The notes beneath the pieces were generated by a model. It had not been told where the DNA came from and searched no databases. It saw only the letters and a list, made by a program, of their open reading frames with translations. Below, one piece after another: positions 1,688 through 63,218 of a stretch of DNA of 64,000 nt. Both the position numbers and the translations under genes were made by a program. Origin of the DNA: Flavobacteriaceae bacterium (GTDB lineage Bacteria > Bacteroidota > Bacteroidia > Flavobacteriales > Flavobacteriaceae); the NCBI GenBank assembly GCA_013215105.1, contig JABSPL010000199.1, positions 1 through 64,000 of the forward strand, given 5' to 3'. The first letter of the stretch is position 1, and every line of letters begins with the position of its first letter.

Positions 1688-3067
1688 CTATTTCTTAATA
1701 TAAGTTCCCTTATAGTCACCTTGTCTTAATTCCATTTTGTTTTGCTCTGGGAAGAATTCATAGTACATAGATTCTGCATAAACTTGCTCAAACTCAAAGT
1801 AATTACCTCCTCTATAAACCAAATTTTCTTTAAGATCTTCTTTCATTACTAGTATTAAGAACTTCTCATCACTAGTAAAAGTAATATTCCAAGCTTCTTC
1901 TCCTTCTTTTACTTCTTCCTCAATATAAACGCCTACATATTTTTTTAAGTCAGCCTCCGATATTTCAATCAATTCGTCATTAAAATAATATTCTAATGCC
2001 GTAGTCATTATTTCATTTTGGTTATTATCCATTCCGTTAGATAGTAATGAAATACTCAATTTATCTTTAGGAAAATATATAACTACCGATTTGAAACCAT
2101 CTATAGACCCTCTATGACCAAAACCTTCTCTCCCACTTATAGAAAACCTAAAAATACCCATTCCATGATTGTCACTAATTACAGTCATCATATCTAGACT
2201 CTTCTTCGAAATTATTTTTTTGGTAAACAATAAATGCATAAATTTATTTATCTCGCTAGGAGTAGAAACTATAGCAGCAGCTCCCATACCGTTAGATAAG
2301 TCTGCCTCAGCTTCCTTTACCCATTTATCATCTTTGTATTTATAAGAATAACTTTCGTTGTTGCTTATATCTGTTTTACCTCCATAATAAGTGTTTTTAA
2401 GCCCAAACGGTATAGATATCTTTTCATGTATCAATTCCTTTAAACTCATATTATACACATTTTCTAGTATTACAGATAACAATACATAATTAGAATTACT
2501 ATAAGCACCCTTGCTATTTGGCTCAAAATCACTTTCGTAAGTCGATATCATATCTACCAACTTTTCGGACGGTGTATATTCTGTATAATAAATTCTAAAA
2601 GCCTTATCACTAGTATAATTATATATTCCACTACTGTGATTAAGCAAGTTCCCTATAGTTATTTTACTTGCATTTTTTACTTTAGGAAAATAGCCGTCTA
2701 TAGTCTGTTCTATTTCCAATTTACCTTCTTCTATAGCTTTTAGAACCAATACAGCCGTAAATGTTTTAGAAATAGAACCAGTTCTATATTTAGTATTTAT
2801 ATCAGAAGCTTCCTTAGTTTCTATATCGTCAAAACCTATAGAGTTAGTATATATAGATTTCCCATCATATGCCAAAGCTATGCCTCCCATATATTTTCTG
2901 TTATCGCTATACATCGCCATCAAACTATCTAGCTTAGGTTCATCTAAACTATACTTGTTTATAACCTGTTTTACTTCTTCTCGATTTGCTTGTTTTGTTT
3001 TTTCTCCCCACGAGCAAGACGATAACATCATAATAATGGATAGAGATAATAATAATTGTTTTTTCAT
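1688..3067 (-). CDS. serine hydrolase, beta-lactamase/PBP family (PF00144-like) lipoprotein, paralog 1
   Basis: SxxK motif (SISK), YSN motif, lipobox LSSCSW; 459 aa. Confidence 0.8.
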   Translation of the reverse strand: MKKQLLLSLSIIMMLSSCSWGEKTKQANREEVKQVINKYSLDEPKLDSLMAMYSDNRKYMGGIALAYDGKSIYTNSIGFDDIETKEASDINTKYRTGSISKTFTAVLVLKAIEEGKLEIEQTIDGYFPKVKNASKITIGNLLNHSSGIYNYTSDKAFRIYYTEYTPSEKLVDMISTYESDFEPNSKGAYSNSNYVLLSVILENVYNMSLKELIHEKISIPFGLKNTYYGGKTDISNNESYSYKYKDDKWVKEAEADLSNGMGAAAIVSTPSEINKFMHLLFTKKIISKKSLDMMTVISDNHGMGIFRFSISGREGFGHRGSIDGFKSVVIYFPKDKLSISLLSNGMDNNQNEIMTTALEYYFNDELIEISEADLKKYVGVYIEEEVKEGEEAWNITFTSDEKFLILVMKEDLKENLVYRGGNYFEFEQVYAESMYYEFFPEQNKMELRQGDYKGTYIKK

Positions 3068-3137: not shown

Positions 3138-4529
3138 TTATTCTCTAAAAAAAACACCTTTACTATTACCTTGCGTATACTCTACTTTATTTAGTTCTGG
3201 AAAAAACCTATAATGTATAGCCTCTGCATAAATCTGTTCAAATACAAAGTAATTACCTCCTTTATAAACCAAATTTTCTTTAAACTCATCTCCTATAGCC
3301 AGTATTAAGAACTTCTCATCACTAATAAAAGTAAAATCACCAGGCTCTTCTCCTTCTTTTACTTTTTCTTTTGGTTCAAGATAAACACCTACATATTTTT
3401 TTAAATCAGCCTCTGATATCTCTATTAACTCATCGTTAAAATAGTAACCTAACGCAGTAGTCATTATCTCATTTTGGTTATTATCCGTTCCGTTAGATAG
3501 TAATGAAATACTCAACTTATCTTTTGGAAAATATATAACTACCGATTTGAAACCACTTAAATCCCCTCTATGACCAAAACCTTCTCTTCCACTTATAGAA
3601 AACCTAAAAATACCCATTCCATGAGTACCGCTAATCACAGTCATCATGTCTATACTCTTCTTAGAAATTATTTTCTCGCTAAACAATAAATGCATAAACT
3701 TATTTAAGTCGCTAGTAGTAGAAACTATAGCACCTGCACCCATAGCGTTAGACAGATCTCCCTCAGGTTCCTTTACCCATTTATTACCTCTGTATTTGTA
3801 AGAATTAGTTTCGTTGTTACTTAAATCTGTTTTACCTCCATAATAAGTGTTTTTAAGTCCAAACGGTATAGATATCTTTGCCTGTATCAATTCTTTTAAA
3901 CTCATATTATATACCTTTTCTAGAATTACAGATAATAACACATAATTAGAATTACTATAAGCCCCTCTGCTGTTTGGTTCAAAGTCACTTTCGTAAGTCG
4001 ATATCATATCTACCAACTTTTCAGACGGTGTATATTCTGTGTAATATGTTCTAAATGCTTTGTCGCTAGTGTAATTATATATCCCACTCCTGTGGTTAAG
4101 CAAGTTGCCGATGGTTATTTTACTTGCATTTTTCACTTTAGGGAAATAACCTTCTATAGTCTGTTCTATTTTTAATTTACCCTCTTCTATTGCTTTAAAA
4201 ACCAATACAGCTGTAAATGTTTTAGAAATAGAACCTATTCTATATTTAGTATTTATATCAGAAGTCTCCTTAGTTTCTATATCGTTAAAACCTATAGAGT
4301 TAGTATATATAGACTTTCCGTCGTGTGCCAAAGCTATTCCTCCCATATATTTTCCGTTATCACTATACACAGCAAGCAGACTATCTAGCTTAGGCTCGTC
4401 TAAACTATACTTGCTTATAATCTGTTTTACTTCTTCTTCGCCTTGTTTTGCTTGTTTTGTTTTTTCGCCCCATGAGCAAGACGATAACATTATAATAATG
4501 GATAACGATAATAATAATTGTTTTTTCAT
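3138..4529 (-). CDS. serine hydrolase, beta-lactamase/PBP family lipoprotein, paralog 2 (tandem duplicate)
   Basis: roughly 85% aa identity to adjacent ORF (estimated by eye); same SISK/YSN motifs and identical signal peptide. Confidence 0.8.
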   Translation of the reverse strand: MKKQLLLSLSIIIMLSSCSWGEKTKQAKQGEEEVKQIISKYSLDEPKLDSLLAVYSDNGKYMGGIALAHDGKSIYTNSIGFNDIETKETSDINTKYRIGSISKTFTAVLVFKAIEEGKLKIEQTIEGYFPKVKNASKITIGNLLNHRSGIYNYTSDKAFRTYYTEYTPSEKLVDMISTYESDFEPNSRGAYSNSNYVLLSVILEKVYNMSLKELIQAKISIPFGLKNTYYGGKTDLSNNETNSYKYRGNKWVKEPEGDLSNAMGAGAIVSTTSDLNKFMHLLFSEKIISKKSIDMMTVISGTHGMGIFRFSISGREGFGHRGDLSGFKSVVIYFPKDKLSISLLSNGTDNNQNEIMTTALGYYFNDELIEISEADLKKYVGVYLEPKEKVKEGEEPGDFTFISDEKFLILAIGDEFKENLVYKGGNYFVFEQIYAEAIHYRFFPELNKVEYTQGNSKGVFFRE

Positions 4530-11263: not shown

Positions 11264-11623
11264 TTATTCTACTATAATATTATCTCCTTTAGGATTCTCT
11301 CCGTATTCGTTACTTCCTATATCACTGTCTGTAACGAACAATACAAGTAGCCATATAGCCCCCACCAAAGGAATAAAAGCTATAAGATACATCCATCCAC
11401 TTTTCCCTATATCGTGAAGTCTTCTTACCGAAACAGCTAATTTAGGAATGAATAAAAGTACCGAATAAATAAATAAAAGATAATTATTTCCTGTTATATA
11501 TGACATCGCAGACAGTGATACTGTAAAAATAAAATTAAACAAAACGAACATCCAATATTCTTTTCGTCTAGCTCTCCCGTTAAAGTCTGCATATTGTTTT
11601 AAAACTTTTATATACCAATCCAT
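11264..11623 (-). CDS. DUF805 family inner-membrane protein
   Basis: 'GRARRKEYWMFVLFN' signature, 3 TM helices. Confidence 0.7.
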   Translation of the reverse strand: MDWYIKVLKQYADFNGRARRKEYWMFVLFNFIFTVSLSAMSYITGNNYLLFIYSVLLFIPKLAVSVRRLHDIGKSGWMYLIAFIPLVGAIWLLVLFVTDSDIGSNEYGENPKGDNIIVE

Positions 11624-11773
11624 TTTTATTCTTCCCTACTCATAGGCTTTTCGGTATCGCCTCGTTTTTTTAGTGATATCTGAACTTCACTTTCGATATA
11701 ACAAAAGCTAATATACATTATTTAAACAAATACTATTGAGTTTTATACATAAATATAATATGGTATAACACAA

Positions 11774-14441: not shown

Positions 14442-15089
14442 AATTATATAATTTAGTTTAATAAACTATTATATAATTTTATAATTAATTGTTAAATACG
14501 ATATGCAAAACAAATACATTTCCACAAGAAAAAAGGCATCTATAAAAGATACCTTTTTTTCCCTTTTCGATTACACTTTAAATATTATTACATAAGTGCA
14601 CTTTATAGCAATCCCCCCGCCTTATAAGTCTATAAAATATTACATTTACCGACTTTCGAACACTACTTTTTTTAGTAGCGATTATCAAATGTAAACATTA
14701 TTATTCATATACACAAGTTTTTACGTAATTTCATATATTTACTTACACTGGTTCTCTATAAAAAAATTCCATTTATTGGAACTTTCTTATAGACCATCCA
14801 ATCTTTAGTCAGATAGTAAATTTACTAAAAAAAAAGTAAAACACATACTATCCTTTTCAAACACTGTATGGCAAATAACATATAAATCTGAAAGCTCAAC
14901 CAGAAGGGTGAAATATGATGTATAATATACCGTACCTACGGTATAAGCCTAAAACCAAAACAATAGTTACATTAATAAATATTGAATAGTCAAAACAAGG
15001 ATATTGAGGTTGGGCTGTACCACCCCTCTACGAGATATCCCAACGGTTAACCTCTTATATATTTTTATTTTAAACTAAAGCTAATACCA

Positions 15090-15245
15090 ATTAAATTTCT
15101 AAATGTCATAATAGAAATAGAATTATTTATTGCTTTAACAAGGCGAAAAATCTAAGTATAGCCTTAGCTATGGTTCTATTTTTTAACGCTGGTAAAGTGA
15201 AAAAGAAACTATATATATAGGACAGATGGATGTTTAACTGGTATA
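15090..15245. repeat. ~160-bp intergenic repeat element, copy A (two more copies at 50.3-50.7 kb)
   Basis: 'ttctaaatgtcataatagaaatagaattattta...aaaaagaaactatatatataggacagatggatgtttaa' matches 50535-50695 and partially 50335-50440. Confidence 0.6.
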
Positions 15246-16520: not shown

Positions 16521-16892
16521 TTAGCTATTCATTATTTTTACAACTCCAGTTTTGTATAAATCTAATGCTTTTTTTAAAATACATTCAATCGTGTTAATAT
16601 CTATATCTTTATTAGGATTCACTCTTAAAATCTTCATTCGGGAACGACTTCCTTGTTCCAAAACAGGATGAGTAAGGTGCTTTCCTTCTACCATTAATAT
16701 ATACGGCTCATCTGTTTTCTTGTCAATCCACAGGTAGCAAAACATTTTTTTCTTATAACAAAAACAAGGCATTCCATATTTTTTGGTTTCGGATATATTT
16801 TCACCTACATTAAGGATAAGGCTACGCAAAGCCAATAAACAACTTTTGTTTGGCTCTTTTATATTAAAATAAAAATCATCTGTGTCTTTCAT
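16521..16892 (-). CDS. DUF1801 (YdhG-like) domain protein
   Basis: length and conserved 'KKYGMPCF...YL' core. Confidence 0.5.
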   Translation of the reverse strand: MKDTDDFYFNIKEPNKSCLLALRSLILNVGENISETKKYGMPCFCYKKKMFCYLWIDKKTDEPYILMVEGKHLTHPVLEQGSRSRMKILRVNPNKDIDINTIECILKKALDLYKTGVVKIMNS

Positions 16893-16932
16893 AATATTTA
16901 TATGTTAGTGAACATCCTAATATGTTTCAGAA

Positions 16933-17409
16933 TTATAAATTAATAATTGGTATCCATATTTCTTCTTCCGAATTAGGATCATTACTTTTGTATTTGTCGC
17001 CCAATACCTCAAAGTGAGGTCTATTGTCCAATTCATACTCCGAATTAGGTAGCCAAGACTCAAATATATACTGAAATATACTAATATCCGAACTAGAACC
17101 TTTATAATAGAAAACAGCATAAAGCCCCCCTGACAAAGTGAATGATTCCATCTGATTAGGAATATTATCGAAATTGGTTACTTCAACTGTTGCCCATTTT
17201 TCAAACTCATTGCTAGGTTCAAAATTTTCATAATATAAGGAATCATAAACTTGCATAGAAACCAGTTCTGTCGTTATATTGTTCTTTATTTCATTTATTC
17301 TAGGTGTGAACTCAGCCCAAAGCTTATGAGTCAAGTTATTTGTCAAACTCATTTTTATTCGTTTTCCAATTAATTTCTTACCTTTTATGTTTTTTATACT
17401 AGGTTTCAT
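16933..17409 (-). CDS. GyrI-like small-molecule-binding domain protein (AraC effector-binding fold)
   Basis: 'LWAEF...VYD...WATVEV...FTLSGGLYAVFYYKG' pattern. Confidence 0.6.
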   Translation of the reverse strand: MKPSIKNIKGKKLIGKRIKMSLTNNLTHKLWAEFTPRINEIKNNITTELVSMQVYDSLYYENFEPSNEFEKWATVEVTNFDNIPNQMESFTLSGGLYAVFYYKGSSSDISIFQYIFESWLPNSEYELDNRPHFEVLGDKYKSNDPNSEEEIWIPIINL

Positions 17410-17591: not shown

Positions 17592-19766
17592 TCAAAAACA
17601 CATAGAAAGCTGAATTCTTTTACGTTCCAAATCAACTTCCTCTACTCTAACTTCTACCTGTTGTTGTAGTTTGACTATATCGTTTATATCTTTCACAAAA
17701 TTATTAGACAACTTAGAAACATGAACCAAACCACTTTCTTTGATACCTATATCGACAAAACAGCCGAAATTGGTGATATTGTTAACTATACCAGGTAATA
17801 TATCTCCTGTTTTTAGGTCATTTATAGTTTTTATACTCTTGTCAAACTCAAAATTCTTAAGAGGTTCTCTAGGATCTAAACCTGGTTTTTTTAGCTCGTC
17901 TATTATATCTTTCAAGGTAGAGACACCTATGTTTTCATCTTTGTAAACCGAAACATCTATACTATCAAGCAAGTCTTTGTTCGAAATAAGACTTGCCAAG
18001 TCTATATTGTTGTCTTTAGCTATTTTATTTATAAGACTATATCTTTCAGGGTGAATTCTGGTATTATCCAGAGGGTTTTTAGCATTTTCTATTCTCAAAA
18101 AAGCTATACTTTGCTCATAAGCTTTATCTCCTAATCGCTTTACCTTTCTCAGTTGCTTCCGGTCAGTAAAAGCACCATTTTCGGTTCTGTAAACAACTAT
18201 ATTTTCGGCAAGTTTAGGGCCTATACCCGACACATAACTAAGTAAATATTTACTAGCAGTATTCAAATTAACCCCTACTTTATTCACACAATGCTCTACC
18301 GTATTGTCAAGTTCACTTTTAAGTTTAGTAGCGTCAACATCGTGTTGATATTGTCCTACTCCTATTGATTTAGCATCTATTTTGACAAGTTCCGCTAAGG
18401 GGTCGGCAAGCCTACGACCTATAGAAATAGCCCCTCTTTGAGTAAGGTCTATATCGGGGAACTCCTCTCTTGCCACTTCCGACGCCGAGTATATAGATGC
18501 ACCAGCCTCGCTAACTACAAAAACAGAAATATCACTATCTAGGTTTAGTTTGTTTATAAACTCTTCGGTCTCCCTCGAAGCCGTACCATTACCTATAGCG
18601 ATAGCTTCTATATTGTATTTTTTTATGTGATTAGCTACAGTATCGGCAGCCTCCAAGTATTTCATCTGTGGCTCGTGAGGATATATAGTGTTATATTTAA
18701 GAAAATCTCCTTGCTTGTTAAGGCTCACAACCTTACAACCCGACCTAAAACCAGGGTCTATTGCCAATATATTCTTACCCGACAAAGGTGATGAAAGTAA
18801 TAATTGCTCCAAATTGGTAGAAAACACTTTTATAGCTATATCTTCTGCTTTTGTTCGGTAAAGACTTAAAGTTTCGTTCGAAATAGCTGGTTCTAACAAT
18901 CTTTTATACGAATCGGCTATTGCAAGTTTTATTTGTTCGGTGCTCTGACTGTTTCCTTTTGCTAGTTTTCGTTCGATAAACGAGATAGACACCTCCTTGT
19001 CTATAGTTGTTTTTGTTTTTATAAAACCTTCATTTTCGGCTCTGAGTATAGCCAATAACCTATGCGAACTACATTTGCTGATATTGGTAGTCATATTAAA
19101 ATAGTCTCTATACTTCTGAGCTTTGGGGTCTTTTTCTTTAGATTTTACTACTTTACTAACAACAGTTGCTCCTTCCGAAAATCTTCGTCTAAGTCCGTTT
19201 CTGATAAGCATATTCTCACTAACCCACTCGGATATTATATGCCTAGCACCTTCCAAAACCTCATCTTTATTCTTTATATTTTCATTAGTAAAACTATCGG
19301 CATATTTGGAGATATTCATATTAGTATCTTCCATTATTTTCTGGGCAAGAGGTTCTAAACCGTTCTTGCGAGCTACTTCTGCTTTAGTTTTACGCTTTTT
19401 CTTATGCGGAAGATAATAATCTTCTAAGTCAGAAAGACTTTGAGTTTTGTTTATATTATCGAACAACGAACTATCCGAAACTCCTCTTTCGTTAAGAGTT
19501 TTTAGTATATATTCTTTTCTTTTGGAAAGTTCTTCGTAGTTCTTTTTACTCTTTTCTATTTCAAAAATATCAACTTCGTTTAAGCCTCCCGTTTTTTCTT
19601 TTCTGTAACGAGATATAAAAGGAATACTATAGTCTTGGTTAAGCATAGACACCGTGTTAGTTATCTTGGTAGTATCTAGTCTGGTGTTGTTTTTTATAAA
19701 CGAAATTAAGCTCATTGATATTGTTTTTTTTGAAAGTGTAAGATATAAAAAAACTAGATTTTTCAT
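17592..19766 (-). CDS. tex: Tex-like transcription accessory protein (YqgF/HhH/S1 domains)
   Basis: N-terminal 'ISRYRKEKTGGLNE', YqgF-like RNase H fold, HhH, C-terminal S1 domain; true start probably Met at 19715. Confidence 0.9.
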   Translation of the reverse strand: MKNLVFLYLTLSKKTISMSLISFIKNNTRLDTTKITNTVSMLNQDYSIPFISRYRKEKTGGLNEVDIFEIEKSKKNYEELSKRKEYILKTLNERGVSDSSLFDNINKTQSLSDLEDYYLPHKKKRKTKAEVARKNGLEPLAQKIMEDTNMNISKYADSFTNENIKNKDEVLEGARHIISEWVSENMLIRNGLRRRFSEGATVVSKVVKSKEKDPKAQKYRDYFNMTTNISKCSSHRLLAILRAENEGFIKTKTTIDKEVSISFIERKLAKGNSQSTEQIKLAIADSYKRLLEPAISNETLSLYRTKAEDIAIKVFSTNLEQLLLSSPLSGKNILAIDPGFRSGCKVVSLNKQGDFLKYNTIYPHEPQMKYLEAADTVANHIKKYNIEAIAIGNGTASRETEEFINKLNLDSDISVFVVSEAGASIYSASEVAREEFPDIDLTQRGAISIGRRLADPLAELVKIDAKSIGVGQYQHDVDATKLKSELDNTVEHCVNKVGVNLNTASKYLLSYVSGIGPKLAENIVVYRTENGAFTDRKQLRKVKRLGDKAYEQSIAFLRIENAKNPLDNTRIHPERYSLINKIAKDNNIDLASLISNKDLLDSIDVSVYKDENIGVSTLKDIIDELKKPGLDPREPLKNFEFDKSIKTINDLKTGDILPGIVNNITNFGCFVDIGIKESGLVHVSKLSNNFVKDINDIVKLQQQVEVRVEEVDLERKRIQLSMCF

Positions 19767-19788
19767 ATGATAAAATGCTGGTTTTTTT

Positions 19789-19829
19789 TGTGGGGTTTAG
19801 TATGTTCAAGAAGTGTCAACTATTATTCA
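19789..19829. repeat. 41-bp perfect direct repeat, left copy (tgtggggtttagtatgttcaagaagtgtcaactattattca)
   Basis: identical to 21742-21782. Confidence 0.9.
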
Positions 19830-19847
19830 GGACTATTGTTTTAGCTT

Positions 19848-20321
19848 CTAGTTTGTTTTGTTGGTCTCGGTTGAATCATATCTATAAATATCAACGTCTG
19901 TAGTTGTCTTAGTTTTATATATAAATTCTATCGTTCTTAGATCGTGTCCAAGTGTAGGAGTTGACTGCTCTTGATTAGTATCAATGTCCATAACAATTCC
20001 TAAAACCGAAGTCAAATCCAAGTCCCTTTTTAGTTTATTTATTATTTCGATTTTATCGTAAAGTAGGTCTACTATTTCTGTAACTATATTATCAAGAAAG
20101 ATTGATTCTTTCCCTTTCTCTGTCGATAATTCCCAGCATGAGTATTTCGTTCTTGGGTTATAAATTCCTTTATCACCTTTTCGCCAACTGACCGTAGGTT
20201 TTGTACCTAGCATATTAGTCACTATTTCTGGGTCAAAGTCGTCCCCTTGGAGAGCAAAGTATATGTAAGAGTTAGATTTTTCCATTTCTATTTTTTTTTG
20301 ATGTTCTACAACGACTAGCAT
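19848..20321 (-). CDS. DUF4279-like hypothetical protein
   Basis: 'YFALQGDDFDPEIVTNMLGTKPTVSWRKGDKG' resembles DUF4279 N-terminal signature. Confidence 0.5.
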   Translation of the reverse strand: MLVVVEHQKKIEMEKSNSYIYFALQGDDFDPEIVTNMLGTKPTVSWRKGDKGIYNPRTKYSCWELSTEKGKESIFLDNIVTEIVDLLYDKIEIINKLKRDLDLTSVLGIVMDIDTNQEQSTPTLGHDLRTIEFIYKTKTTTDVDIYRYDSTETNKTN

Positions 20322-20444
20322 ATGCGGTGTAGGAGTTTTCGAAGAGCTACTTTATATTCATAAACCGAACACCATTAGTATATACGAACTCCATTCCTAA
20401 GGTACTTTTCCTATGGATTATATGCAGAGTTAACAACAGTTTAA

Positions 20445-20891
20445 TTATTTGTGTTTGAGATTATATTCTTTTTCATATTCAGCGTCATCCACGTAATCCA
20501 ACATATTACCAAATTCTTTTATGAAGATGTCGGTAGCAATATTATCAGTTGAAAACTCATACATCAAATAATTCTCTTCATGTGTACCTCCGATCTGCCC
20601 TTTGATATGTACTAGACCATCTTTACTCATTGTAAACTCAACAAAGGCATTTGAATCATTATCCTCAATTTTAGTATGTCCTTGATTTGAACTAGTCATA
20701 TCGATTAAATCAGCACACAGTTTTTCAATTTGATCTTTTCGAATACAAAAGTGACTTGTTCCTGAAAATTTGCCACTTCTTACTGTTAGGTCAAATGTCA
20801 AATTAACCTGTACCATATATCTAGTAGCAAAGGAAATTTCATCTTTCGCGTCTGTAGATTTTAACTCTATTTTATCTGCTAATTCTAACAT
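20445..20891 (-). CDS. hypothetical protein (no recognisable domain)
   Basis: 148-aa ORF, coding-like composition, same strand as neighbours. Confidence 0.5.
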   Translation of the reverse strand: MLELADKIELKSTDAKDEISFATRYMVQVNLTFDLTVRSGKFSGTSHFCIRKDQIEKLCADLIDMTSSNQGHTKIEDNDSNAFVEFTMSKDGLVHIKGQIGGTHEENYLMYEFSTDNIATDIFIKEFGNMLDYVDDAEYEKEYNLKHK

Positions 20892-21010
20892 TTATTTATT
20901 GTTCAATTGCTACTAACGGCTAGAATATATGACGTAGGGGCTTCGAAGTTCTACATTCAATTTCTAAACTACTATCCCTATAGATTGTATGTCTTGTTGT
21001 GCAACGTATT

Positions 21011-21535
21011 TTATATTTTATTTAAAATCCAATTCGATATTTTTTCAATTCGGAATATTATTATTAGCGTCAAAATTGCTTTTAGAATATAGTTTGCAAC
21101 TGCAAAATCAGGCAATTCAATTTCTTTGTTTCCATTCAGCATTGAAATAAATTTTATGCAATATTCAATCAAGCCAGGAAGCAGATAAAACATTTTAGCT
21201 AACCAAATAATAGCAACTGTCAATAAAATCACTTTAGTCAGTGATTTTGGATTCAATTCGGTTTTGATTTCGCTTTTCGTTTTCACGAGCTTTTTAGAAA
21301 TCCAGTCCGCTTTTATGAAAAGAAATAAAGAAACAATGATATTCGCAACAGTCAGAAATGTTCCCGTAAAATAGAATTTATCTATCGGTTCACTAAGTAA
21401 TTCGTCAAATCTGGCCATTGTTGCGGTTCCGTAAATTGAAAAGAAATAAGCTCCGAAATGGTCAAAAATTTCAGTAAATAAATAAATTCCAGCTATTCTT
21501 AAAATTAAGGTTGTTAAGGTTTGGTTCGTCATCAA
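21011..21535 (-). CDS. hypothetical 4-TM membrane protein
   Basis: four hydrophobic helices; 174 aa. Confidence 0.5.
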   Translation of the reverse strand: MMTNQTLTTLILRIAGIYLFTEIFDHFGAYFFSIYGTATMARFDELLSEPIDKFYFTGTFLTVANIIVSLFLFIKADWISKKLVKTKSEIKTELNPKSLTKVILLTVAIIWLAKMFYLLPGLIEYCIKFISMLNGNKEIELPDFAVANYILKAILTLIIIFRIEKISNWILNKI

Positions 21536-21741
21536 TTTTTAGGTTGGTTTATATGTTGCACAATCCCCAAATATAAATAATTAATATCATCCATCTAAGT
21601 TAATATCTATGTTATTTGCCATTTTGATTTATATAACACTACAAGTGCTGAGATGTAACTAATTAAATTACGGATAAAACAGTAAGCCGTAGGGATTGCT
21701 TCGTGCCTCGCAATGACGTATTGTTAATTGTTCTTAATGAC

Positions 21742-21782
21742 TGTGGGGTTTAGTATGTTCAAGAAGTGTCAACTATTATTCA
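21742..21782. repeat. 41-bp perfect direct repeat, right copy
   Basis: identical to 19789-19829. Confidence 0.9.
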
Positions 21783-21861
21783 ATACAATTCAATTTAAAC
21801 AGACTACTTTGTCAACTTAAGGTGTTTGGGGAGGTTCTGTTTGTTTTTTTGTTTTGGTGTC

Positions 21862-22005
21862 TTTCGGTATGGGTTGTGTTACCTGTGCTTAGCATACCCA
21901 GAAGAGCGAGGGGAAAAGATTTTTAGAGTAGTAGTATATTTGATAGATTAGATTTTGAGAATGCTCCTCTATGGTTATGCCATGCTGTAGAGATCTATTT
22001 GTTTT
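21862..22005 (+). repeat. stop-codon-anchored 3' repeat element R1, including a 22-codon C-terminal gene remnant (…SVWVVLPVLSIPRRARGKDF*)
   Basis: about 90% identical by eye to 24164-24300; core 'tttttagagtagta..gatagattagattttgagaatgc.cctctatggtta' shared with 25338-25425. Confidence 0.7.
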
Positions 22006-23045: not shown

Positions 23046-23834
23046 CTAATTTATACTTTTTATTTTTTTTATTGCTTTGTTTGGGTAATTAGTAATTAGC
23101 CCATCTAATTTCAAATCTATTAGATATTGCATTTTTTCTTCATCATCTACGGTATACTTCCATACCTCTATGCCATAACTATGCGCTAAGTCCATAAAGT
23201 CTTTTGTTATTGTAGTTTTAGACCCTACTCCTATAGCATTAGAATTTATCATTTTGGCATATTCTAAAGTGTTTTTGTCTGCATAACCTTTTAAATACAG
23301 TATTTGTATGTTTTTATCTAGTTCTCGTATTTTGGAAATTACAGGGTAAGAGAATGAAAATATAATAACTTCTTCATTCATTTCTAGGTCGTTTATTATT
23401 TTTAACACACCTTCCTCTATTCCATCCACTTTTATTTCTATACAAACCTTTATTTTGCCTTTAGCCAACATCAATGACTCTCTCAGAGTTGGTATTTTTT
23501 CATCTTTATACTTATCGCTAAACTTATCAGGGTAGCCAACTCTTACATCTACTAACTCCTGATATGTCATATTTGCAACATATCCTTTTTTCGAAAAACT
23601 AGTTTTATCTACAGATGAATCATGAATCACAACTATAGAATCGTTTTTAGTCTTATGTACGTCTAATTCGAAATAATCGGCTCCAGAGTCTATAGCTTTA
23701 CTAAAAGCAATTAAAGTATTTTCTGGAGCTATACTAGAAAAACCACGATGTGCTATTATCTTGGTTTGAGAGTTTATTGTCATTGATATTAATAATAACA
23801 ATGACAATATGTTTTGTTTTTTAATTATATTCAT
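23046..23834 (-). CDS. glycerophosphodiester phosphodiesterase (GDPD) family, secreted
   Basis: 'HRGFSSIAPENTLIAF...ADYFELDVHKTKD' GDPD catalytic motif. Confidence 0.85.
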   Translation of the reverse strand: MNIIKKQNILSLLLLISMTINSQTKIIAHRGFSSIAPENTLIAFSKAIDSGADYFELDVHKTKNDSIVVIHDSSVDKTSFSKKGYVANMTYQELVDVRVGYPDKFSDKYKDEKIPTLRESLMLAKGKIKVCIEIKVDGIEEGVLKIINDLEMNEEVIIFSFSYPVISKIRELDKNIQILYLKGYADKNTLEYAKMINSNAIGVGSKTTITKDFMDLAHSYGIEVWKYTVDDEEKMQYLIDLKLDGLITNYPNKAIKKIKSIN

Positions 23835-23893: not shown

Positions 23894-24229
23894 GTGTCAA
23901 CTGTATTGTTAAGCGCCGTGAAGCCTATATTTAACCTAAACATAACGAGCTGTATACAATGGGGGTTTTTGCTTTCTTTAGTACTGTTACAAGAATATTA
24001 TTTAGGTGAATTCTCGCTAATAGTAACTATGTTTAACCCTATAGACCTTTCCAGAATATTGTTATTGTTACAACTTGACATAGCAGCATTACTAGGATAT
24101 ACTGGAGCAGTATTCCAAAAATTCTTTGGTACTAGTATGGGGATGATAACCTCTATAGCTATGCTTTCGGTATGGGTTGTGTTACCTGTGCTTAGTATAC
24201 CCGGAAGAGCGAGGAAGAAAGATTTTTAG
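23894..24229 (+). CDS. hypothetical membrane-protein fragment (probable gene remnant)
   Basis: no N-terminal context; C-terminal 22 aa and 3' flank repeated at 21862. Confidence 0.35.
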   Translation: MSTVLLSAVKPIFNLNITSCIQWGFLLSLVLLQEYYLGEFSLIVTMFNPIDLSRILLLLQLDIAALLGYTGAVFQKFFGTSMGMITSIAMLSVWVVLPVLSIPGRARKKDF

Positions 24230-24300
24230 AGTAGTAATAGTAGATTTGATAGATTAGATTTTGAAAATGCCCCTCTATGGTTAGCCATGCCTATAAATGT
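24164..24300 (+). repeat. 3' repeat element R2
   Basis: see R1. Confidence 0.7.
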
Positions 24301-24379
24301 GTGTTTTTTTAAATTAAATATCTAATTACAGAGATATATTATCTTTTTAAAGTATTTGTGCTGATTTGTAAATTGGAAG

Positions 24380-25345
24380 TTGTTTTTTAAACAATATATT
24401 TGTAACCACAATCATAAAACCTTTTTAATGAAAATTAAAACACAGTATATCCTAATTCTTGTATTAGTTATATTAATTTCTTGTAAAGAAAAAATTAAAA
24501 CAGAAAACAACAATACGACTATAAATATAAAATCATCAAAAAAAGAAGAGGTAAAACCTTATAAGATATATAATAGTGAAGTTTTTTCTATAAAATCGGA
24601 TATTATAGGGAAGGAGTATAAGATATATGTCAAATTACCTAAATCTTATAAAAAATCAGACAAGAGCTATCCTATATTGATGCTTACTGATGCTAATTAT
24701 TCATTCCCTTTAGTTTCGTCTATTTACCGAAGACTGAGTTCTAAGGTTGATCCGTTTATTATAATTGGTATTTCTTACGCAAAGGGAGAGCATTTCGGAA
24801 CAAGTAGGACAAGGGACTATACACCTACGTATTCTCCTAATGAACCAAATGGCTATACAAAAGAATCAAGACTTTCATCAGGGCAAGCAGATAAATTTAT
24901 AGATTTTATGACTAATCAGCTGATGGTTACTTTACAAAACAAATACAGAATAGACGCTAGTAAAAAAGTGTTTGCAGGGCATTCGTTAGGAGGTTTACTG
25001 GCAAACTATATGGTTGTGAGCAAGCCCGAAAGCTTTGATTATTATCTGTCAGGAAGTCCTTCACTCTGGTATCATGATAAATCTATATTAGAAATAGAAG
25101 AGAAATATAGTAAAACTGTAAGTGATATAAAAGCTAATTTGTTTATGTGTATAGGAGGTAAAGAAGAAACTCAAGGAGAGTATAAAATGATATCGGATAT
25201 GTACGAATTTCAGAAAAAACTACTGTCTAGAAACTACAAAAGCTTAAATATAAAAAGTGTAGTTGTAGACGATGAAGACCATGAAACGGTATACCCTAGT
25301 TTTATAACAAAAGGTATTATTATGGCTTTTGGCAAAGGTTTTTAG
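24380..25345 (+). CDS. alpha/beta-hydrolase esterase (putative esterase / enterochelin-esterase-like) lipoprotein
   Basis: GHSLGG nucleophile elbow; lipobox LISCKE. Confidence 0.75.
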   Translation: MFFKQYICNHNHKTFLMKIKTQYILILVLVILISCKEKIKTENNNTTINIKSSKKEEVKPYKIYNSEVFSIKSDIIGKEYKIYVKLPKSYKKSDKSYPILMLTDANYSFPLVSSIYRRLSSKVDPFIIIGISYAKGEHFGTSRTRDYTPTYSPNEPNGYTKESRLSSGQADKFIDFMTNQLMVTLQNKYRIDASKKVFAGHSLGGLLANYMVVSKPESFDYYLSGSPSLWYHDKSILEIEEKYSKTVSDIKANLFMCIGGKEETQGEYKMISDMYEFQKKLLSRNYKSLNIKSVVVDDEDHETVYPSFITKGIIMAFGKGF

Positions 25346-25425
25346 AGTAATAGTAGATATGATAGATTAGATTTTGAGAATACCCCTCTATGGTTACGTC
25401 ATGATGTAGAGAGGTGTTTTTTTCG
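25338..25425 (+). repeat. 3' repeat element R3 (starts at the stop codon of the esterase gene; contains hairpin + T7)
   Basis: see R1. Confidence 0.7.
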
Positions 25426-46760: not shown

Positions 46761-49157
46761 TTACCACCGATCAGAGCAGTCTCCCCATTTAGGGGTTCCC
46801 GTATTTATAGCCCCATCATTAAAACCAGAAGGTTCTGCAGCTACTCCACATGCTTTCCAAGAACTTAAATTTTGATTAAAGTCAACTGCCTGATTAAACA
46901 TGTCTGTCATATCAGAAACACGGCTAACATCCCATTCTCCTATATCTTGATTGAAAGGAGTATTAGCAAACATTGATCTCATAGAATCCACATTACTAAC
47001 ATTCCATTCTCCTATATCTTGATTGAAAGGAGTATTAGCAAGCATTAGATTCATGTATATGACATTACTAACATTCCAAGTCTTTATGTTTTGATTAAAC
47101 ATTGATGCTCCCGCAAACATTTTACCCATATGCCAAACAGAGCTAACATTCCAACCTCCTATATATTTATCGAATTTTGTTGCACTCCTAAACATCCCTC
47201 TCATATTTTTAACAGAGCTAACATCCCATTCTTTCAGATCATGATTAATATTACTACCATAAAACAGATAGCTCATATCAGTAACAGAACTAACATCCCA
47301 AGTATTAATACCCAAATCAATCCATGATTGATCATCTAGGCTAACACTTTCGAACATCCATCTCATATTAGTCACTCCTTCCATATTCGGTTTGTTTATA
47401 GAGGACATAGTTTTTAATCTAGAACAGCTCTTAAAATACCCACCTTCGTTACCAAATCTAAAATCATCTCCCCATCTAAGAATTTTTATTATTTTATATT
47501 TAGATGTTGAATTTTTATCAAAACTAAAACCATGTAACTTACCTTTTATAATCACTGTCATATCTCCTGATCTATCAAATATATGAGAGGCTCCTGCATC
47601 ATTGTGACTAGTAACACTTTCACTATCATAATATCCTGATGAAGAATGCCAGTCAATTTTGAAATCATAATCTCCTCCATCATATATAGGTAATTCTATT
47701 TTATCTCCGGAGTTAACAGAAAAAACAATAACAAAATCGGCTTTACTTATAGTAATGCTATATTCTTTACTTGTACTTTTATCTTCCGATGTTACAATGA
47801 ACCTATTATTAACACCTTCCTGATCTAAATAGACCTTCCTTAAATTTGTAATTTCAATACCATTCACCTCTAAAGAAGCTCCTTCACTTATATTTAATCC
47901 TAATGATGAATCACCTATATTTTCACCAATATATAAGTTAAGTTCTATAATATCTGTTACGGGTATACTACTGCCATATCTATTTAAGGAAGTAATTAAT
48001 GCTTCGTTGTTTTTAGATATATTGACTACTATAGAGTACTCTTTACTAGTTTTCAGATCTTCTGAGGTAACTACAAAAGTCCTTTTAACTCCATCATCAA
48101 AAATGAGATTATTTAAATTTGTTATTTTAATACCATTCTCACTTATAGATGCTCCTGCACTTATAGTTAAATTTAGAGTCTGTATTTCTTCTTTATAAGG
48201 AGAAGAAACATCAATATCATCACTTATTTCTACATCCTGATTATTGTAGCTTATTGAAACTATTTTAGCTTCACTGCCTTTCTCCACACTAATGGTTATA
48301 GAGTACTCTTTACTAGTTTTCAGATCTTCTGAAGTAACTACAAAAGTCCTTTTAACTCCATCATCAAAAATGAGATTATTTAAATTTGTTATTTTAATAC
48401 CATTTTCACTTATAAATGCTCCTGTACTTATAGTTAAATTTAGAGTCTGTATTTCTTCTTTAGAAGGAGAAGAAACATCAATATCATCACTTATTTCTAT
48501 ATCCTGATTATTGTAGCTTATTGAAATTATTTTAGCAGAATTAGATTTCTCTATATTAATAGTTATACTATATTCTTTACTAGCAGATCTATCTTCTGAA
48601 ATTACTATAAAGACTCTCTTAATTCCATCGTTAAAAATAAGATCACTTAATATTGTTATTTCATTATTCCCTTCTTTTAATGTAGCACCCTCACTTATGT
48701 CCAGAGTTATTGTTTGTATTTCTTCGCCATAAGATAAATTAATATTAACATTACTTTTAACTTCTACAGGCTTATCATTATATATTATTGATATCATACT
48801 AGCCTTAGTACTTTTTGGGGAATTAATGGTTAAAGTATACTCGTTAGCTGTCCCATCTTGAGCCGTCACCAGTAAAACCTGAGGAACACCGTTTTCTAAT
48901 TTTAGATCACTAAGGCTAGGAGATATCGTTGCTCCATAACTTACAACTCCAGAGAGTTCAATATCTGATAGGTCTATGTTTTGACTAATAGTAATAGATA
49001 TAGAGTTATTTTCATCAATAATGGTCTCTACAGAATAAGACTTAGCCCCTATTGATAGCTCAACCAAATAAGCCTCGCTATTTAAGACTGGTGTATATTT
49101 ATAACAGCTAAACATCAAAAGTAGCATAGCCAATGAAATTAATGATTTATTCTTCAT
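46761..49157 (-). CDS. BspA-type leucine-rich-repeat (DUF285) surface protein with N-terminal tandem Ig-like repeats
   Basis: C-terminal 'W.VSNV..M..MF..A..FNQDI..W' DUF285 repeats; five ~89-aa N-terminal repeats, three nearly identical. Confidence 0.75.
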   Translation of the reverse strand: MKNKSLISLAMLLLMFSCYKYTPVLNSEAYLVELSIGAKSYSVETIIDENNSISITISQNIDLSDIELSGVVSYGATISPSLSDLKLENGVPQVLLVTAQDGTANEYTLTINSPKSTKASMISIIYNDKPVEVKSNVNINLSYGEEIQTITLDISEGATLKEGNNEITILSDLIFNDGIKRVFIVISEDRSASKEYSITINIEKSNSAKIISISYNNQDIEISDDIDVSSPSKEEIQTLNLTISTGAFISENGIKITNLNNLIFDDGVKRTFVVTSEDLKTSKEYSITISVEKGSEAKIVSISYNNQDVEISDDIDVSSPYKEEIQTLNLTISAGASISENGIKITNLNNLIFDDGVKRTFVVTSEDLKTSKEYSIVVNISKNNEALITSLNRYGSSIPVTDIIELNLYIGENIGDSSLGLNISEGASLEVNGIEITNLRKVYLDQEGVNNRFIVTSEDKSTSKEYSITISKADFVIVFSVNSGDKIELPIYDGGDYDFKIDWHSSSGYYDSESVTSHNDAGASHIFDRSGDMTVIIKGKLHGFSFDKNSTSKYKIIKILRWGDDFRFGNEGGYFKSCSRLKTMSSINKPNMEGVTNMRWMFESVSLDDQSWIDLGINTWDVSSVTDMSYLFYGSNINHDLKEWDVSSVKNMRGMFRSATKFDKYIGGWNVSSVWHMGKMFAGASMFNQNIKTWNVSNVIYMNLMLANTPFNQDIGEWNVSNVDSMRSMFANTPFNQDIGEWDVSRVSDMTDMFNQAVDFNQNLSSWKACGVAAEPSGFNDGAINTGTPKWGDCSDRW
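47780..48860 (-). repeat. intragenic tandem repeats (~267-bp period) within BspA-like gene
   Basis: 'SKEYSITI...FDDGVKRTFVVTSEDLKT' repeated; supplied ORFs 48007-48198 and 48292-48507 are near-identical artefacts of these repeats. Confidence 0.8.
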
Positions 49158-51452: not shown

Positions 51453-52250
51453 TTAATTCATGTTTTGTATTTTCTTTGTGGCTTTATCGGGGTAATTAGT
51501 GATTAGTCCATCTAATTTTAGGTCTATCAGATTCTGCATCTTTTCTTCATCATCTATAGTATATTTCCATACTTCTATGCCATGGCTATGTGCTAAGTCT
51601 ATAAAATCTTTGGTTATTACAGTCTTAGACCCTACCCCTATGGCCTTAGAATTTATCATTTTGGCGTAGTCTATAGTGTTTTTGTCAGCGTAACCTTTTA
51701 GGTATAGTATAGGTGTATTTTCGTCTAGTTTCCTTATTTTTGATATTACAGGATAATAAAAGGAGAATATAATCACTTGCTCATTCATCCCTAGGTCGTT
51801 GATTATTTTTAAGACATCTTCTTCTATTCCATATACTTTTATTTCTATACAAACCTTTATTTTACCTTTGGCTAGGCTCAATGATTCTCTCAGGGTTGGT
51901 ATTTTTTCATCCTTATATTTATCTCCAAATTAGTCAGGGGATCCAACTTTTATATTGATTAATTCCTGATATGTCATATCTGCAACCTCTCCTTTTTTAT
52001 AAAAACTGGTTTTGTCTACCGATGAATCGTGAATTACTACTATAGAGTCATTTTTGGTTTTATGAACATCTAATTCGAAATAATCGGCTCCAGAATCTAT
52101 TGCTTTACTAAATGCCGTTAGGGTATTTTCTGGTGCTATACTAGAAAAGCCACGATGTGCTATTATTTTGGTTTGAGAGTTTATTGTCATTGAAATCAAT
52201 AATAATAATAATAATAATAAGATTAGTTTTAAGTTTTTAATTGTGTTCAT
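51453..52250 (-). pseudogene. glycerophosphodiester phosphodiesterase paralog, frameshifted (two ORFs 51930-52250 and 51453-51881)
   Basis: both halves 80-90% identical by eye to 23046-23834 protein; frame breaks near 51900-51930. Confidence 0.7.
52198..52220. repeat. (AAT)7 microsatellite encoding poly-Leu in the GDPD paralog signal peptide
   Basis: aataataataataataataa. Confidence 0.8.
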
Positions 52251-55969: not shown

Positions 55970-56174
55970 TTATTATGCTAGAACTTGTTACGGTCATCTG
56001 GCAGGGAAGTTAGGGATCAATACCGTTTTAACATCCAAATGTCGCATGCAGATAGTTTCTTTTTCACTTTTACTGCGTTAAAAAAGGTTAAGCATAGTGA
56101 TACTATGCTTAACCTTTTCACCTTGTTAAAGCAAAAAATAATTCTATTTCTAATGCAATATTTAGATATTACAT

Positions 56175-56645
56175 TTACAACCTTTCTGCCTTACAACTAT
56201 AACATCCAGGGCCCGAGTTGTGAATATGTATATAGTTAACATAATCGTTATCAAAAGCAGTCCCTATTTCATGATTTAGCTTCTTACTATCTATAGTACT
56301 GGTATATATCATAATTCCTTCTTTATCGTAAGCTCGTATCGATAAGAATTTATTTAATAATACCTCAGGGATTTCGTTAACAGCCAAGCCAACTTTTTTT
56401 GCATCTTTTTTTACAAAAATAGGGCCACTAGACCTATATGGAGAGTCAGTTTTATGATGTTCGAAAGGAAATAAAAGTATCTCTTCTCCTATTTTTGCGT
56501 ATTTGAGACCTACCCTACAAGGAAAAGAGGTCTCCTTATCGGCTATTATTTTTATATATCCTTTGGTTAATAATTCGTCTTGGCTTAAGGTAAACAAATG
56601 ATTGTAATCGTTGTCAATTGCTGATATCTTAAAATTTGTATTCAT
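56175..56645 (-). CDS. hypothetical protein (DUF1203-like)
   Basis: 156 aa, conserved-looking 'FPCRVGL' core. Confidence 0.45.
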   Translation of the reverse strand: MNTNFKISAIDNDYNHLFTLSQDELLTKGYIKIIADKETSFPCRVGLKYAKIGEEILLFPFEHHKTDSPYRSSGPIFVKKDAKKVGLAVNEIPEVLLNKFLSIRAYDKEGIMIYTSTIDSKKLNHEIGTAFDNDYVNYIHIHNSGPGCYSCKAERL

Positions 56646-62312: not shown

Positions 62313-63218
62313 ATGGTAATCATGACTTGGAAAACACTTTTAAATGATTATTTGGACTATCTAAAAATAGAAAGAGGTCTGAGTGAAAATACTATCATTA
62401 ACTATAGGTTAGATGTGGAGAAACTCATGGCTTTTTTGGATGAAAACAATTATAATATCACAGCTATAACTATTGATAGATACACTGTACTTGAATTCGT
62501 TTATCAGGTTTCCAAGCTAAGCGAATCCAGTAGTCAAGCCCGAATAATATCGGGGCTTAGAGGTTTTTTCGATTACCTTATTTTTGAAAAATATAGAGAA
62601 GACAGCCCTATGTCGCTCATAGAATCGCCTAAAAGCGGAACTAAAATACCCGATATTCTTACTTTAGAAGAAGTGGATAATATAATAGATAGTTTCGATA
62701 GCGAAGATGCATTAGGTTATAGGAATAAAAATATAATAGAGTGCTTGTATAGTTGTGGGCTTAGAGTTAGTGAGCTTGTTGAACTTAAAATATCTAATAT
62801 TTACTATAAAGAGAGTGTAATACTTGTACATGGTAAGGGAAACAAAGAAAGATTTGTACCTATAGATGAACTTACTTTAACTAATATTAAGACTTATATA
62901 GAAGATTATCGTATAAAACACTCTAAAGAAGGTAAGTCCGAAGATGTATTGTTTCTTAACCGAAGAGGGAACAAACTTACAAGAATAATGATATACACTA
63001 TAGTCAAAGATATAGTTGCTAAACTAAGGCTTGCCAAAAACATCAGTCCTCATACTTTTAGGCATTCTTTTGCTACCCATCTGCTCGAAAACGGAGCTGA
63101 CTTAAGGTCTATACAGCAGTTACTTGGACACGAAAACATAGTGACTACCGAAAGATATATGCATATAGATAATAGCTTTTTGAAGGATATTGTAAATAAA
63201 TATCACCCTAGAGCTTAA
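62313..63218 (+). CDS. xerD: site-specific tyrosine recombinase XerD
   Basis: R..HxxR..Y catalytic residues ('HTFRHSFATHLLENGADLRSIQQLLGHENIVTTERY'). Confidence 0.85.
   Translation: MVIMTWKTLLNDYLDYLKIERGLSENTIINYRLDVEKLMAFLDENNYNITAITIDRYTVLEFVYQVSKLSESSSQARIISGLRGFFDYLIFEKYREDSPMSLIESPKSGTKIPDILTLEEVDNIIDSFDSEDALGYRNKNIIECLYSCGLRVSELVELKISNIYYKESVILVHGKGNKERFVPIDELTLTNIKTYIEDYRIKHSKEGKSEDVLFLNRRGNKLTRIMIYTIVKDIVAKLRLAKNISPHTFRHSFATHLLENGADLRSIQQLLGHENIVTTERYMHIDNSFLKDIVNKYHPRA

Follow-up and report, generated by a model that had tools for sequence, protein, structure and literature searches.

A probable integrase-less array of three integron-type gene cassettes beside tex in an uncultured marine Flavobacteriaceae bacterium

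Clusters of attC sites that lack an integron integrase have been named CALIN (Cury et al. 2016, PMC4889954), and for Bacteroidetes the IntegronFinder 2.0 survey recovered nothing beyond In0 elements and a single complete integron, that of Salinibacter (PMC9024848). In Bacteroidales, the recombinase-associated acquired interbacterial defence clusters, or rAID-1, are defined by a 5' XerD-like recombinase gene that is more than 44% identical to BF9343_RS08045, and reports of close homologues of this recombinase are confined to that order (Ross et al., bioRxiv 10.1101/471110). Here, we analyse a stretch of 64,000 nt (the window; contig JABSPL010000199.1 of assembly GCA_013215105.1) from an uncultured marine Flavobacteriaceae bacterium, in which three small genes next to tex are bracketed by perfect 41-bp direct repeats. 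A further point of comparison is provided by the cis-mobilizable elements (CIMEs), att-flanked integrative elements without an integrase of their own that derive from an integrative and conjugative element of Streptococcus thermophilus.

We consider it probable that the three genes, called g3, g2 and g1 in their order of reading, form a short, integrase-less array of single-gene integron-type cassettes, CALIN- or rAID-like in kind, lying between tex and a truncated gene. Integron-type arrays have scarcely been reported in Bacteroidetes, and the locus led us to large integrase-less arrays in cultured marine Flavobacteriaceae. The genes, the spacers between them (IG1 to IG3) and the neighbouring tex gene are laid out as follows.

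17592–19715, minus strand: tex, with Pfam Tex domains, directly downstream of the array; used as the yardstick of vertical divergence
19848–20285, minus strand: g1, DUF4279 (FdL-Imm5) immunity-family protein of 145 aa (NQX82743.1 in NCBI; an alternative ATG at 20321 gives 157 aa)
20303–20438, minus strand: IG1, attC-like site between g2 and g1, the top match of the covariance model R1 described below
20445–20891, minus strand: g2, WapI-like immunity-family protein of 148 aa (sub-threshold PF24716 match and family matches)
20892–21010, minus strand: IG2, homologue of IG1 between g3 and g2, with an R''-like GTTGCACAAC at 21005–20996 and an R'-like CCGTTAG about 26 nt before the g2 ATG
20984–21563, minus strand: g3 cassette, comprising the coding sequence and its conserved ends, delimited by nucleotide homology to loci L104, L106 and L107
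21011–21532, minus strand: g3, membrane protein of 173 aa with three strong hydrophobic segments and one weaker N-terminal segment, about four transmembrane helices
21536–21741, minus strand: IG3, 206 non-coding nt between the right repeat and g3, read by eye

Cassette g3 and related arrays in other genera

The g3 protein is 81–88% identical to proteins of Tenacibaculum, Hyunsoonleella and Olleya, which are also 173 aa long, and 52–79% identical to homologues in Winogradskyella, Aquimarina, Polaribacter and Nonlabens (61–79% without Nonlabens). The Tex protein of the window, however, is only 58–62% identical to those of the g3-carrying genera, with about 60% for Tenacibaculum, Hyunsoonleella and Olleya. 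Because g3 is far better conserved across genera than the adjoining housekeeping gene, we conclude that it has moved horizontally. The family is rare, with 19 representatives among 1.84 billion proteins.

The conservation of g3 has sharp limits at the DNA level. Identity of 81–85% to the loci of Tenacibaculum ascidiaceicola (L104), Hyunsoonleella ulvae (L106) and Olleya sp. Hel_I_94 (L107) runs from 21563 to about 20984, that is, from 31 nt before the ATG to about 27 nt past the stop codon, ending some 12 nt beyond the GTTGCACAAC that follows the stop. In the relatives, the cassette's 5' end reads GTTGTGCAAC, and GTTGTGCAAC and GTTGCACAAC are mutual reverse complements; in the window the same end reads A-TTGTGCAAC, with homology starting at (G)TTGTGCAAC. 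The homology borders lie within a few bases of both 10-mers in Tenacibaculum and Olleya, and the span shared with Hyunsoonleella is about 20 nt shorter at each end. The neighbours of g3 differ in every genome, the contexts in the three loci being unrelated to one another. In these loci, as in Winogradskyella (L108), the g3 homologue occurs without g1 or g2, and the three genes are never found together; in Winogradskyella it stands between core genes and has no cassette ends. The comparison identifies g3 as an integron-type cassette that, judging from these borders and contexts, has moved between genera. Contig L005 (13.5 kb) shows 12 differences from the window, 4 of which fall within 68 nt just upstream of the g3 border (21563–21630), a cluster that marks either a local hot spot or a small recombination tract.

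The Olleya locus (VISI01000002.1:1555144-1571665) displays the surrounding architecture most fully. Its g3 homologue belongs to a run of about 15 co-oriented small genes and, between about 800 and 13,600 of the locus, at least 11 genes or gene pairs in succession each lie between perfect inverted 10-mers (10/10) of the form GTTG+6 ... 6+CAAC, with a distinct sequence for each cassette. The sites between cassettes are about 125 nt long, near-identical, and read ..CAAC-ACC-GTATATAAT ... CCATATAC-AACAAC-GTTG.... By its sequence, this is the anatomy of integron cassettes: the attC sites carry R'', L'', L' and R' boxes, and the 5' end of each cassette complements the R'' of that cassette. Arrays of this kind, though smaller, are present in Hyunsoonleella ulvae (4349–9460 of L106) and Tenacibaculum ascidiaceicola (7969–10100 of L104), and 15 attC-like sites from the three genera share a common 13-pair stem, with compensatory changes in 7 of the 13 pairs. 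No integrase is encoded within about 8 kb on either side of the g3 homologue in any of the three loci, and the arrays are CALIN-like in the terms of Cury et al. (PMC4889954).

Spacers and genes of the array

We built a covariance model, R1, solely from these 15 sites, with the window excluded; it is distinct from IntegronFinder's curated attC model. Its first match in the entire 64-kb window is IG1, over the full length of the model (24.7 bits, E = 0.0049, or E = 1.7e-4 when R1 is restricted to 19700–21900). The boxes of IG1 are R'' TGTTGTTAAC, L'' GCATAT, L' ATATGC and R' CGTTGTAG, the last about 27 nt before the g1 ATG. Where IG1 has GCATAT and ATATGC, the Olleya sites have GTATAT and ATATAC, a two-sided change by which pairing is retained. 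Primary sequence and predicted pairing together place IG1 in the attC-like family of the Olleya, Hyunsoonleella and Tenacibaculum arrays.

The second spacer, IG2, is homologous to IG1 as judged by alignment: their local alignment score of 41.5 was reached by 0 of 2000 dinucleotide shuffles, and the homology reaches up to the start codons. IG2 is apparently a degenerate attC-like site. Weight matrices were prepared for the R''-L'' and the L'-R' ends, and the ranking was repeated without the training sites linked to g3 homologues. Among 127,958 positions, the R''-L'' matrix ranks the 5' ends of IG2 and IG1 fourth and fifth, with or without the g3-linked sites. Each of the three window cassettes has a (C)GTT(G/A) core 26–31 nt ahead of its ATG, that of g3 reading ATT. 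The last 90 or so nt of IG3 could, by eye, be another degenerate attC-like site with a ATATAAAT / ATTTATAT stem, and R1 does not detect it.

The spacers were detected only by the structure-aware covariance model and the end-specific weight matrices. A profile of the Olleya-type sites has no match in the window, a profile of the attC family typified by metagenome locus L046 (see below) reaches IG1 and IG2 at just E = 7 and 18, and Rfam, which holds no attC family, returns no match in the region at E <= 10.

One population variant of IG1 was found. The 776-nt contig L004 aligns from 621 to 776 with window positions 20444–20300: 42 nt past the g2 stop are identical, 6 clustered substitutions follow, and an unrelated, hairpin-bearing stretch leads to the end TAGCTCTTCGCCCCCCCTA. 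The variant points to recombination inside the spacer, or to another downstream cassette in some cells.

An ordinary operon inherited by vertical descent, in which the repeats and the similarity of the spacers are incidental, would be in keeping with the GC content of the bracketed region, which is no different from that of its flanks, and with the identical structure in all contigs of the population. It is nevertheless contradicted already by the distribution of g3, which is far more conserved across genera than Tex and has different neighbours in every genome, and by IG1 being the top match of a model made from foreign sites. The recombinant IG1 in contig L004 and the 41-mer pair, whose chance expectation is nil, also stand against it, and we regard this explanation as very improbable.

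The gene content agrees largely with an earlier note on this DNA, which described three co-oriented minus-strand genes and likened them to accessory cassettes for immunity, defence or toxin neutralisation: a DUF4279-like protein, a 148-aa protein with no recognisable domain and a 4-helix membrane protein, with no integrase or transposase between them. The three open reading frames (ORFs) were confirmed. The product of g1 matches Pfam PF14106 (DUF4279) at E = 1.1e-20, with 74.5 bits against a cut-off of 25. Among the immunity families of polymorphic toxin systems, DUF4279 is classed as FdL-Imm5 (PMC9424270), and in Salmonella it is paired, as an immunity family, with an Rhs-Ntox33 toxin (PMC13304343). 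The description of g2 had to be revised: the protein itself scores 22 bits against PF24716 (WapI-like immunity), under the cut-off of 27, and 26 of the 29 aligned members of its family match PF24716 at E < 0.001. By these matches, g1 is assigned to a polymorphic-toxin immunity family and g2 to a family that fits the WapI-like immunity profile, in line with the accessory character proposed for both. The hydrophobic segments of g3 are consistent with about four transmembrane helices; Pfam and NCBIfam-type scans gave it no family match, it carries no functional annotation, and its AlphaFold (AF2) model is poor (pLDDT 68.5), too low for a fold search.

None of the three proteins is matched by the PADLOC defence models. 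Because no toxin gene is adjacent to g1, g2 or g3, we refer to g1 and g2 as orphan immunity genes. Pfam and NCBIfam scans found no integrase or transposase inside the bracket, as had been stated, and none adjacent to it; the sole tyrosine recombinase in the window is an XerD-like gene at 62313–63218, 40 kb away. Since the bracketed genes have no recombinase of their own, any mobility needs an enzyme encoded elsewhere.

The AF2 model of g2 (pLDDT 83, pTM 0.78) has a two-fold beta4-alpha architecture. As modelled, it is similar to single-stranded nucleic-acid binders with the Whirly/MRP1-MRP2/PUR fold (Foldseek E = 1e-3, TM 0.5–0.6), a fold that is unexpected in a WapI-like immunity protein.

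Homologues of g2 occur in about 80 metagenome loci, without g1 or g3, and in 31 of these a 127-nt attC-like palindrome is present, in 116 copies overall. In locus L046 (3703–8465), a co-oriented tyrosine recombinase of the Xer/IntI-like type (348 aa) is encoded directly 5' of the array, and similar arrays are found in L044, L047, L056 and about 27 other metagenome loci. Their cassettes encode AbiC-like, WapI-like, SnoaL and TfoX_N proteins and FMN reductase, and their attC palindromes, about 127 nt long, are 86–95% identical to one another. This layout resembles rAID-1 but lies outside gut Bacteroidales (bioRxiv 10.1101/471110). Other g2 homologues stand in long arrays of small genes without known function (L015 and L016). 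An attC-like site also precedes the g2 homologue of L024 and ends in AGCCGTTAGG about 27 nt before the ATG, the position at which the window has AGCCGTTAGT.

Downstream of that single g2 homologue, L024 carries a 24-nt tandem repeat at 3776–3880 (AATGACCCTTAATGACACGAAGCA...). The tandem repeat and a small hairpin in IG3 of the window (21700–21720) share the motif CACGAAGCAAT.

We propose the following mechanism for the array. Each cassette would consist of one small gene, with a CGTTG/CGTTAG-type core (R') about 26–31 nt before its ATG and, as its 3' part, an attC-like site of the order R''(..AAC) - 3 nt - L'' ... L' - 5–7 nt - R'. Cassettes would have been gained singly, by site-specific recombination at the attC-like sites, catalysed by a tyrosine recombinase whose gene lies elsewhere in the genome, and the genes would act as orphan immunity against toxins delivered by competitors. 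The sites of the array appear partly decayed, with weak folds and with ATT rather than GTT in the g3 core, and because of this apparent decay the array may now be largely fixed in place.

Several observations weigh against reading the locus as a cassette array. The complementarity between a cassette's 5' end and its own R'' is 9/10 in g3 (TTGTGCAAC against GTTGCACAAC, with ATT replacing GTT), 7/10 in g2 and 6/10 in g1, the latter two, compared by eye, not being significant. R1 gives IG2 only 11.1 bits (E = 0.11 within the region), the L'-R' weight matrix fails to single out the 3' end of either IG1 or IG2, and no attC-like site is detectable downstream of g1. The stable hairpin expected of CALIN sites is absent from both spacers: folded as single-stranded DNA, IG1 reaches -10.3 kcal/mol (z = -0.25) and IG2 -4.8 kcal/mol (z about +0.7; +0.66), no better than shuffled sequence, whereas the bona fide attC-like sites of L046 reach -20 to -24 kcal/mol (z = -2 to -4). 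With no integrase beside the array of the window or, within about 8 kb on each side of the g3 homologue, beside those of L104, L106 and L107, the recombinase is hypothetical, and the immunity function is deduced purely from family membership. As for the bracketing 41-mers, their similarity to IG1 is marginal (p about 0.02–0.05) and nothing ties them to the attC-like family; the origin that we assign to them below is drawn by analogy.

Tentatively, we suggest that Olleya, Tenacibaculum, Hyunsoonleella and the lineage of the window share a widespread and largely unrecognised attC-type cassette system, whose integrase-less arrays would exchange accessory and orphan immunity genes across genera, and whose small arrays could be moved or deleted as blocks by way of long, perfect flanking repeats. 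As this locus and the related arrays already indicate, marine Flavobacteriaceae keep attC-type arrays, swap cassettes between genera and house toxin-immunity genes there, with no integrase adjacent. These arrays offer a handle on how orphan immunity genes spread among particle-associated marine bacteria, and on which enzyme moves cassettes in arrays without a neighbouring integrase.

The 41-bp direct repeat and its surroundings

We now consider the repeats that bracket the array, together with the DNA beyond them.

19789–19829, no strand assigned: left repeat copy, separated by 18 nt from the g1 stop and by 73 nt from the downstream tex start (19715)
21742–21782, no strand assigned: right repeat copy, 206 nt before the g3 start
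21783–21860, minus strand: spacer of 78 nt between the right repeat and the truncated gene fragment, holding an L'-R'-like match at 21843–21818
21861–22004, plus strand: truncated copy of the 3' end of ORF 23894–24229 with a terminator-like repeat (repeat families D7 and D11, by alignment)

The repeat reported by the earlier note is exact. The 41-mer occurs in the window in exactly two copies, identical at 41 of 41 positions with 0 mismatches, and dinucleotide-preserving shuffles put the chance expectation for such a pair at 0.00 matches. On one side the identity extends to 49 nt at 94%; on the other, tex-proximal side it ends abruptly. Contigs L001/L005, L002 and L021, which are independent assemblies from several ENA samples, carry both copies and the identical gene order, and they match the window at about 99.9% identity. 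Because the same structure appears in independently assembled metagenome contigs, the repeat is real rather than an artefact of assembly. The left copy, which the earlier note had placed in the tex promoter region, ends 73 nt short of tex when the tex start is set at 19715; that start gives a protein of 707 aa that aligns over its full length with homologues of 707–709 aa.

The earlier note likened the two copies to attL and attR of one trans-mobilised three-gene cassette, or else to substrates of RecA-mediated excision, and raised the question whether the 41-mer marks other cassettes. Put in terms of known elements, the 1953-bp unit made up of one 41-mer and g3-g2-g1 would be a single integrase-less element of the CIME or IME type (integrative and mobilizable element), moved by a tyrosine integrase encoded elsewhere and inserted at a 41-bp attB just upstream of the tex promoter. 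The perfect identity of the copies and its abrupt end on the tex-proximal side agree with this proposal, and a length of 41 bp is not unusual for the identical core of att sites used by integrases. The unit also has no recombinase, and it abuts a truncated gene, a sign that the region has been rearranged. However, at least three other genera carry g3 alone, bounded by short core sites of its own, and never the trio together, and the homology to the paralogous region on the right breaks off at 21860/61, 78 nt past the repeat. Nor does the repeat contain an inverted-repeat or dif-like core.

Searches for further copies and for unoccupied sites bear on the same proposal. There are 0 exact matches of the 41-mer in JGI metagenome contigs and 0 in IMG/VR, and the 64-kb window holds no third copy with up to 3 mismatches, none being found by short-word BLAST either; the 41-mer does not, in these data, mark other cassettes. 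No empty-site allele was found among the population contigs in look-ups with Tex, the metallo-beta-lactamase-fold neighbour, g1 and g2, all array-reaching contigs being occupied; only three contigs (L001/L005/L021, L002 and L003) reach a repeat copy in this look-up. No close relative with an orthologous locus was found, either: Tex has a 100% identical counterpart in a metagenome-assembled genome that NCBI lists as 'Flavobacteriaceae bacterium', the next-best match reaches 62% in the protein search, and none exceeds 50% in the genome-contig scan. We judge a single att-flanked element to be unlikely. That the locus is accessory, horizontally mobile and recombinase-less stands; the mobile unit appears to be the single gene and not the trio, since the elements resembling recombination sites are the intergenic spacers and g3 travels alone.

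A duplicated promoter or operator offers another account of the repeat. The 41-mer would then be a regulatory element that co-controls the array and tex, kept by selection or gene conversion and unrelated to mobility. Both copies do lie upstream of a transcription unit and are oriented alike with respect to it, at distances of 206 nt (g3) and 73 nt (tex), and a TTGACA hexamer is present within the repeat. A promoter consensus scan, however, shows no excess over shuffled sequence and no promoter-like site in the repeat, in which no Bacteroidetes-type pair of -33 TTG and -7 TAnnTTTG is visible. A TAnnTTTG-like box (TACACTTTC) sits instead between the repeat and the tex ATG, and regulatory sites do not need 41/41 identity. 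We think such an element quite improbable, more so than the att-flanked one.

The 41-mer was also examined as an attC or dif site, and both assignments were rejected. Neither the attC covariance model nor either weight matrix (R''-L'' and L'-R') matches it, it has no significant fold, and no dif-like palindrome is present, the best 11-6-11 palindrome pairing 6–7 of 11 positions, which equals the background median. Alignments by eye to the R''/L'' or L'/R' halves were dropped as mutually contradictory.

For the cassette array that we favour, the closest parallels to the repeat come from the related genera. Perfect direct repeats of 20–77 nt that flank one or many cassettes are common in the Tenacibaculum and Olleya loci. 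Examples are a 64-nt repeat whose copies are 1245 nt apart in Tenacibaculum, and a 57-nt repeat in Olleya whose copies, 11.9 kb apart, span almost the whole array. In these cases, the flanking repeats correspond to the conserved central parts of adjacent attC-like sites. By analogy, the 41-mers would most likely represent an array-associated repeat in duplicate, or the part that two such repeats share, or else a scar left when recombination placed or rearranged the array beside tex. Lying in direct orientation, they are a plausible substrate for RecA-mediated (homologous) deletion of the whole array. Nothing shows that they are sites at which the bracketed genes move, and an attL/attR origin is possible and unsupported. 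Gain or loss of the entire array in one step is a testable possibility, for which the 41-bp bracket is the candidate.

To the right of the array, 5' of g3, there is non-coding DNA, then a gene fragment and then a divergent gene of the metallo-beta-lactamase fold. The degraded region that the earlier note saw here is real: 21861–21935 duplicates, in truncated form, the 3' end of ORF 23894–24229, followed by a terminator-like hairpin at 21967–21992. Homology to the paralogous region ends at 21860/21861, a rearrangement breakpoint beside the array, and because 78 nt separate the right repeat from the truncated copy, the breakpoint is not at the repeat. Within these 78 nt, the L'-R'-like match at 21843–21818 ranks fifth of 127,950 positions by the L'-R' weight matrix. 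The repeat at 21861–22004 recurs at 24164–24310 and 25331–25423, three copies with a terminator-like hairpin end, and ORF 23894–24229 itself resembles a gene fragment. Just right of this three-copy repeat, beyond 22056, contig L002 diverges from the window over its positions 1–111, through either a structural variant or an assembly join.

On the other side, downstream of tex, the minus strand of 16521–17409 encodes Cass2 ('integron-associated effector binding protein', GyrI-like) and a DUF1801 protein. These small genes are of types that are often cassette-borne, and no attC-like site was detected around them.

Elsewhere in the window, a DUF805 RNA motif (Rfam RF03081, 67.9 bits) lies at 11629–11695 on the minus strand, directly upstream of the DUF805 gene at 11264–11623. 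Two adjacent inverted-repeat arms of 73 and 66 nt, about 80% complementary, link 15089–15244 with 56020–56175; separated by 41 kb, they enclose most of the central part of the window. A GDPD-family gene is duplicated at a distance of 28 kb (23047–23346 and 51454–51753, 82% identity), and tandem beta-lactamase-family genes at 1688–3067 and 3138–4529 are 76–89% identical. Two ORFs contain in-frame tandem repeats: a 15-nt unit repeated about 15 times at 58945–59169, in ORF 58344–59570, and a 267-nt unit repeated 3 times at 48030–48830, in ORF 46761–49157.

Comparison with known systems

Like a CIME, the locus consists of a short, recombinase-less gene set surrounded by identical direct repeats. 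We know of no cognate integrase-bearing element for these repeats. The locus differs from a CIME in that no second occurrence of the repeat and no empty site was found, and in that its genes behave as independent cassettes.

The orphan immunity islands of polymorphic toxin systems (Zhang et al. 2012, PMC3482391) likewise contain small, soluble immunity-family proteins without a neighbouring toxin, and homologues of the window's proteins are found in long arrays of small genes (L015 and L016). In those islands the genes are linked by toxin-gene fragments, whereas attC-like sites link them here; moreover, the third gene here, g3, encodes a membrane protein of a family without known role.

The rAID-1 clusters belong to the same phylum and share with the window co-oriented orphan immunity genes and repetitive intergenic sequences described as 'reminiscent of integrons'. 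The window has at least two co-directional genes, homologous spacers (IG1 and IG2) and immunity content (g1 and g2), as rAID-1 does. Unlike rAID-1, the window has no XerD-like recombinase adjacent to the array, which is the defining feature of that system, and only three genes. The metagenome arrays of the L046 type, in which a recombinase is co-oriented with g2 homologues, are also unlike the window in this regard.

For CALIN, the criteria that we applied included at least two attC sites in the same orientation within 4 kb, and no integron integrase within 4 kb. Of the spacers, IG1 qualifies as such a site, IG2 does so in part, and IG3 is a candidate by eye. No integrase lies within that distance of the window's array, and g3 is a case of the same cassette in different genomic contexts, as seen in L104, L106 and L107. 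The window differs from CALIN in its Flavobacteriaceae host, in its weakly folding, apparently part-decayed sites and in a 41-bp bracket that is not attC-like. What the two have in common are co-oriented, promoter-poor single-gene cassettes, imperfect-palindrome sites with ..AAC / GTT.. cores, the lack of a nearby integrase, cassettes mostly annotated without function, and the presence of the same cassette in different genomes. In part, therefore, the locus fits the features of a CALIN.

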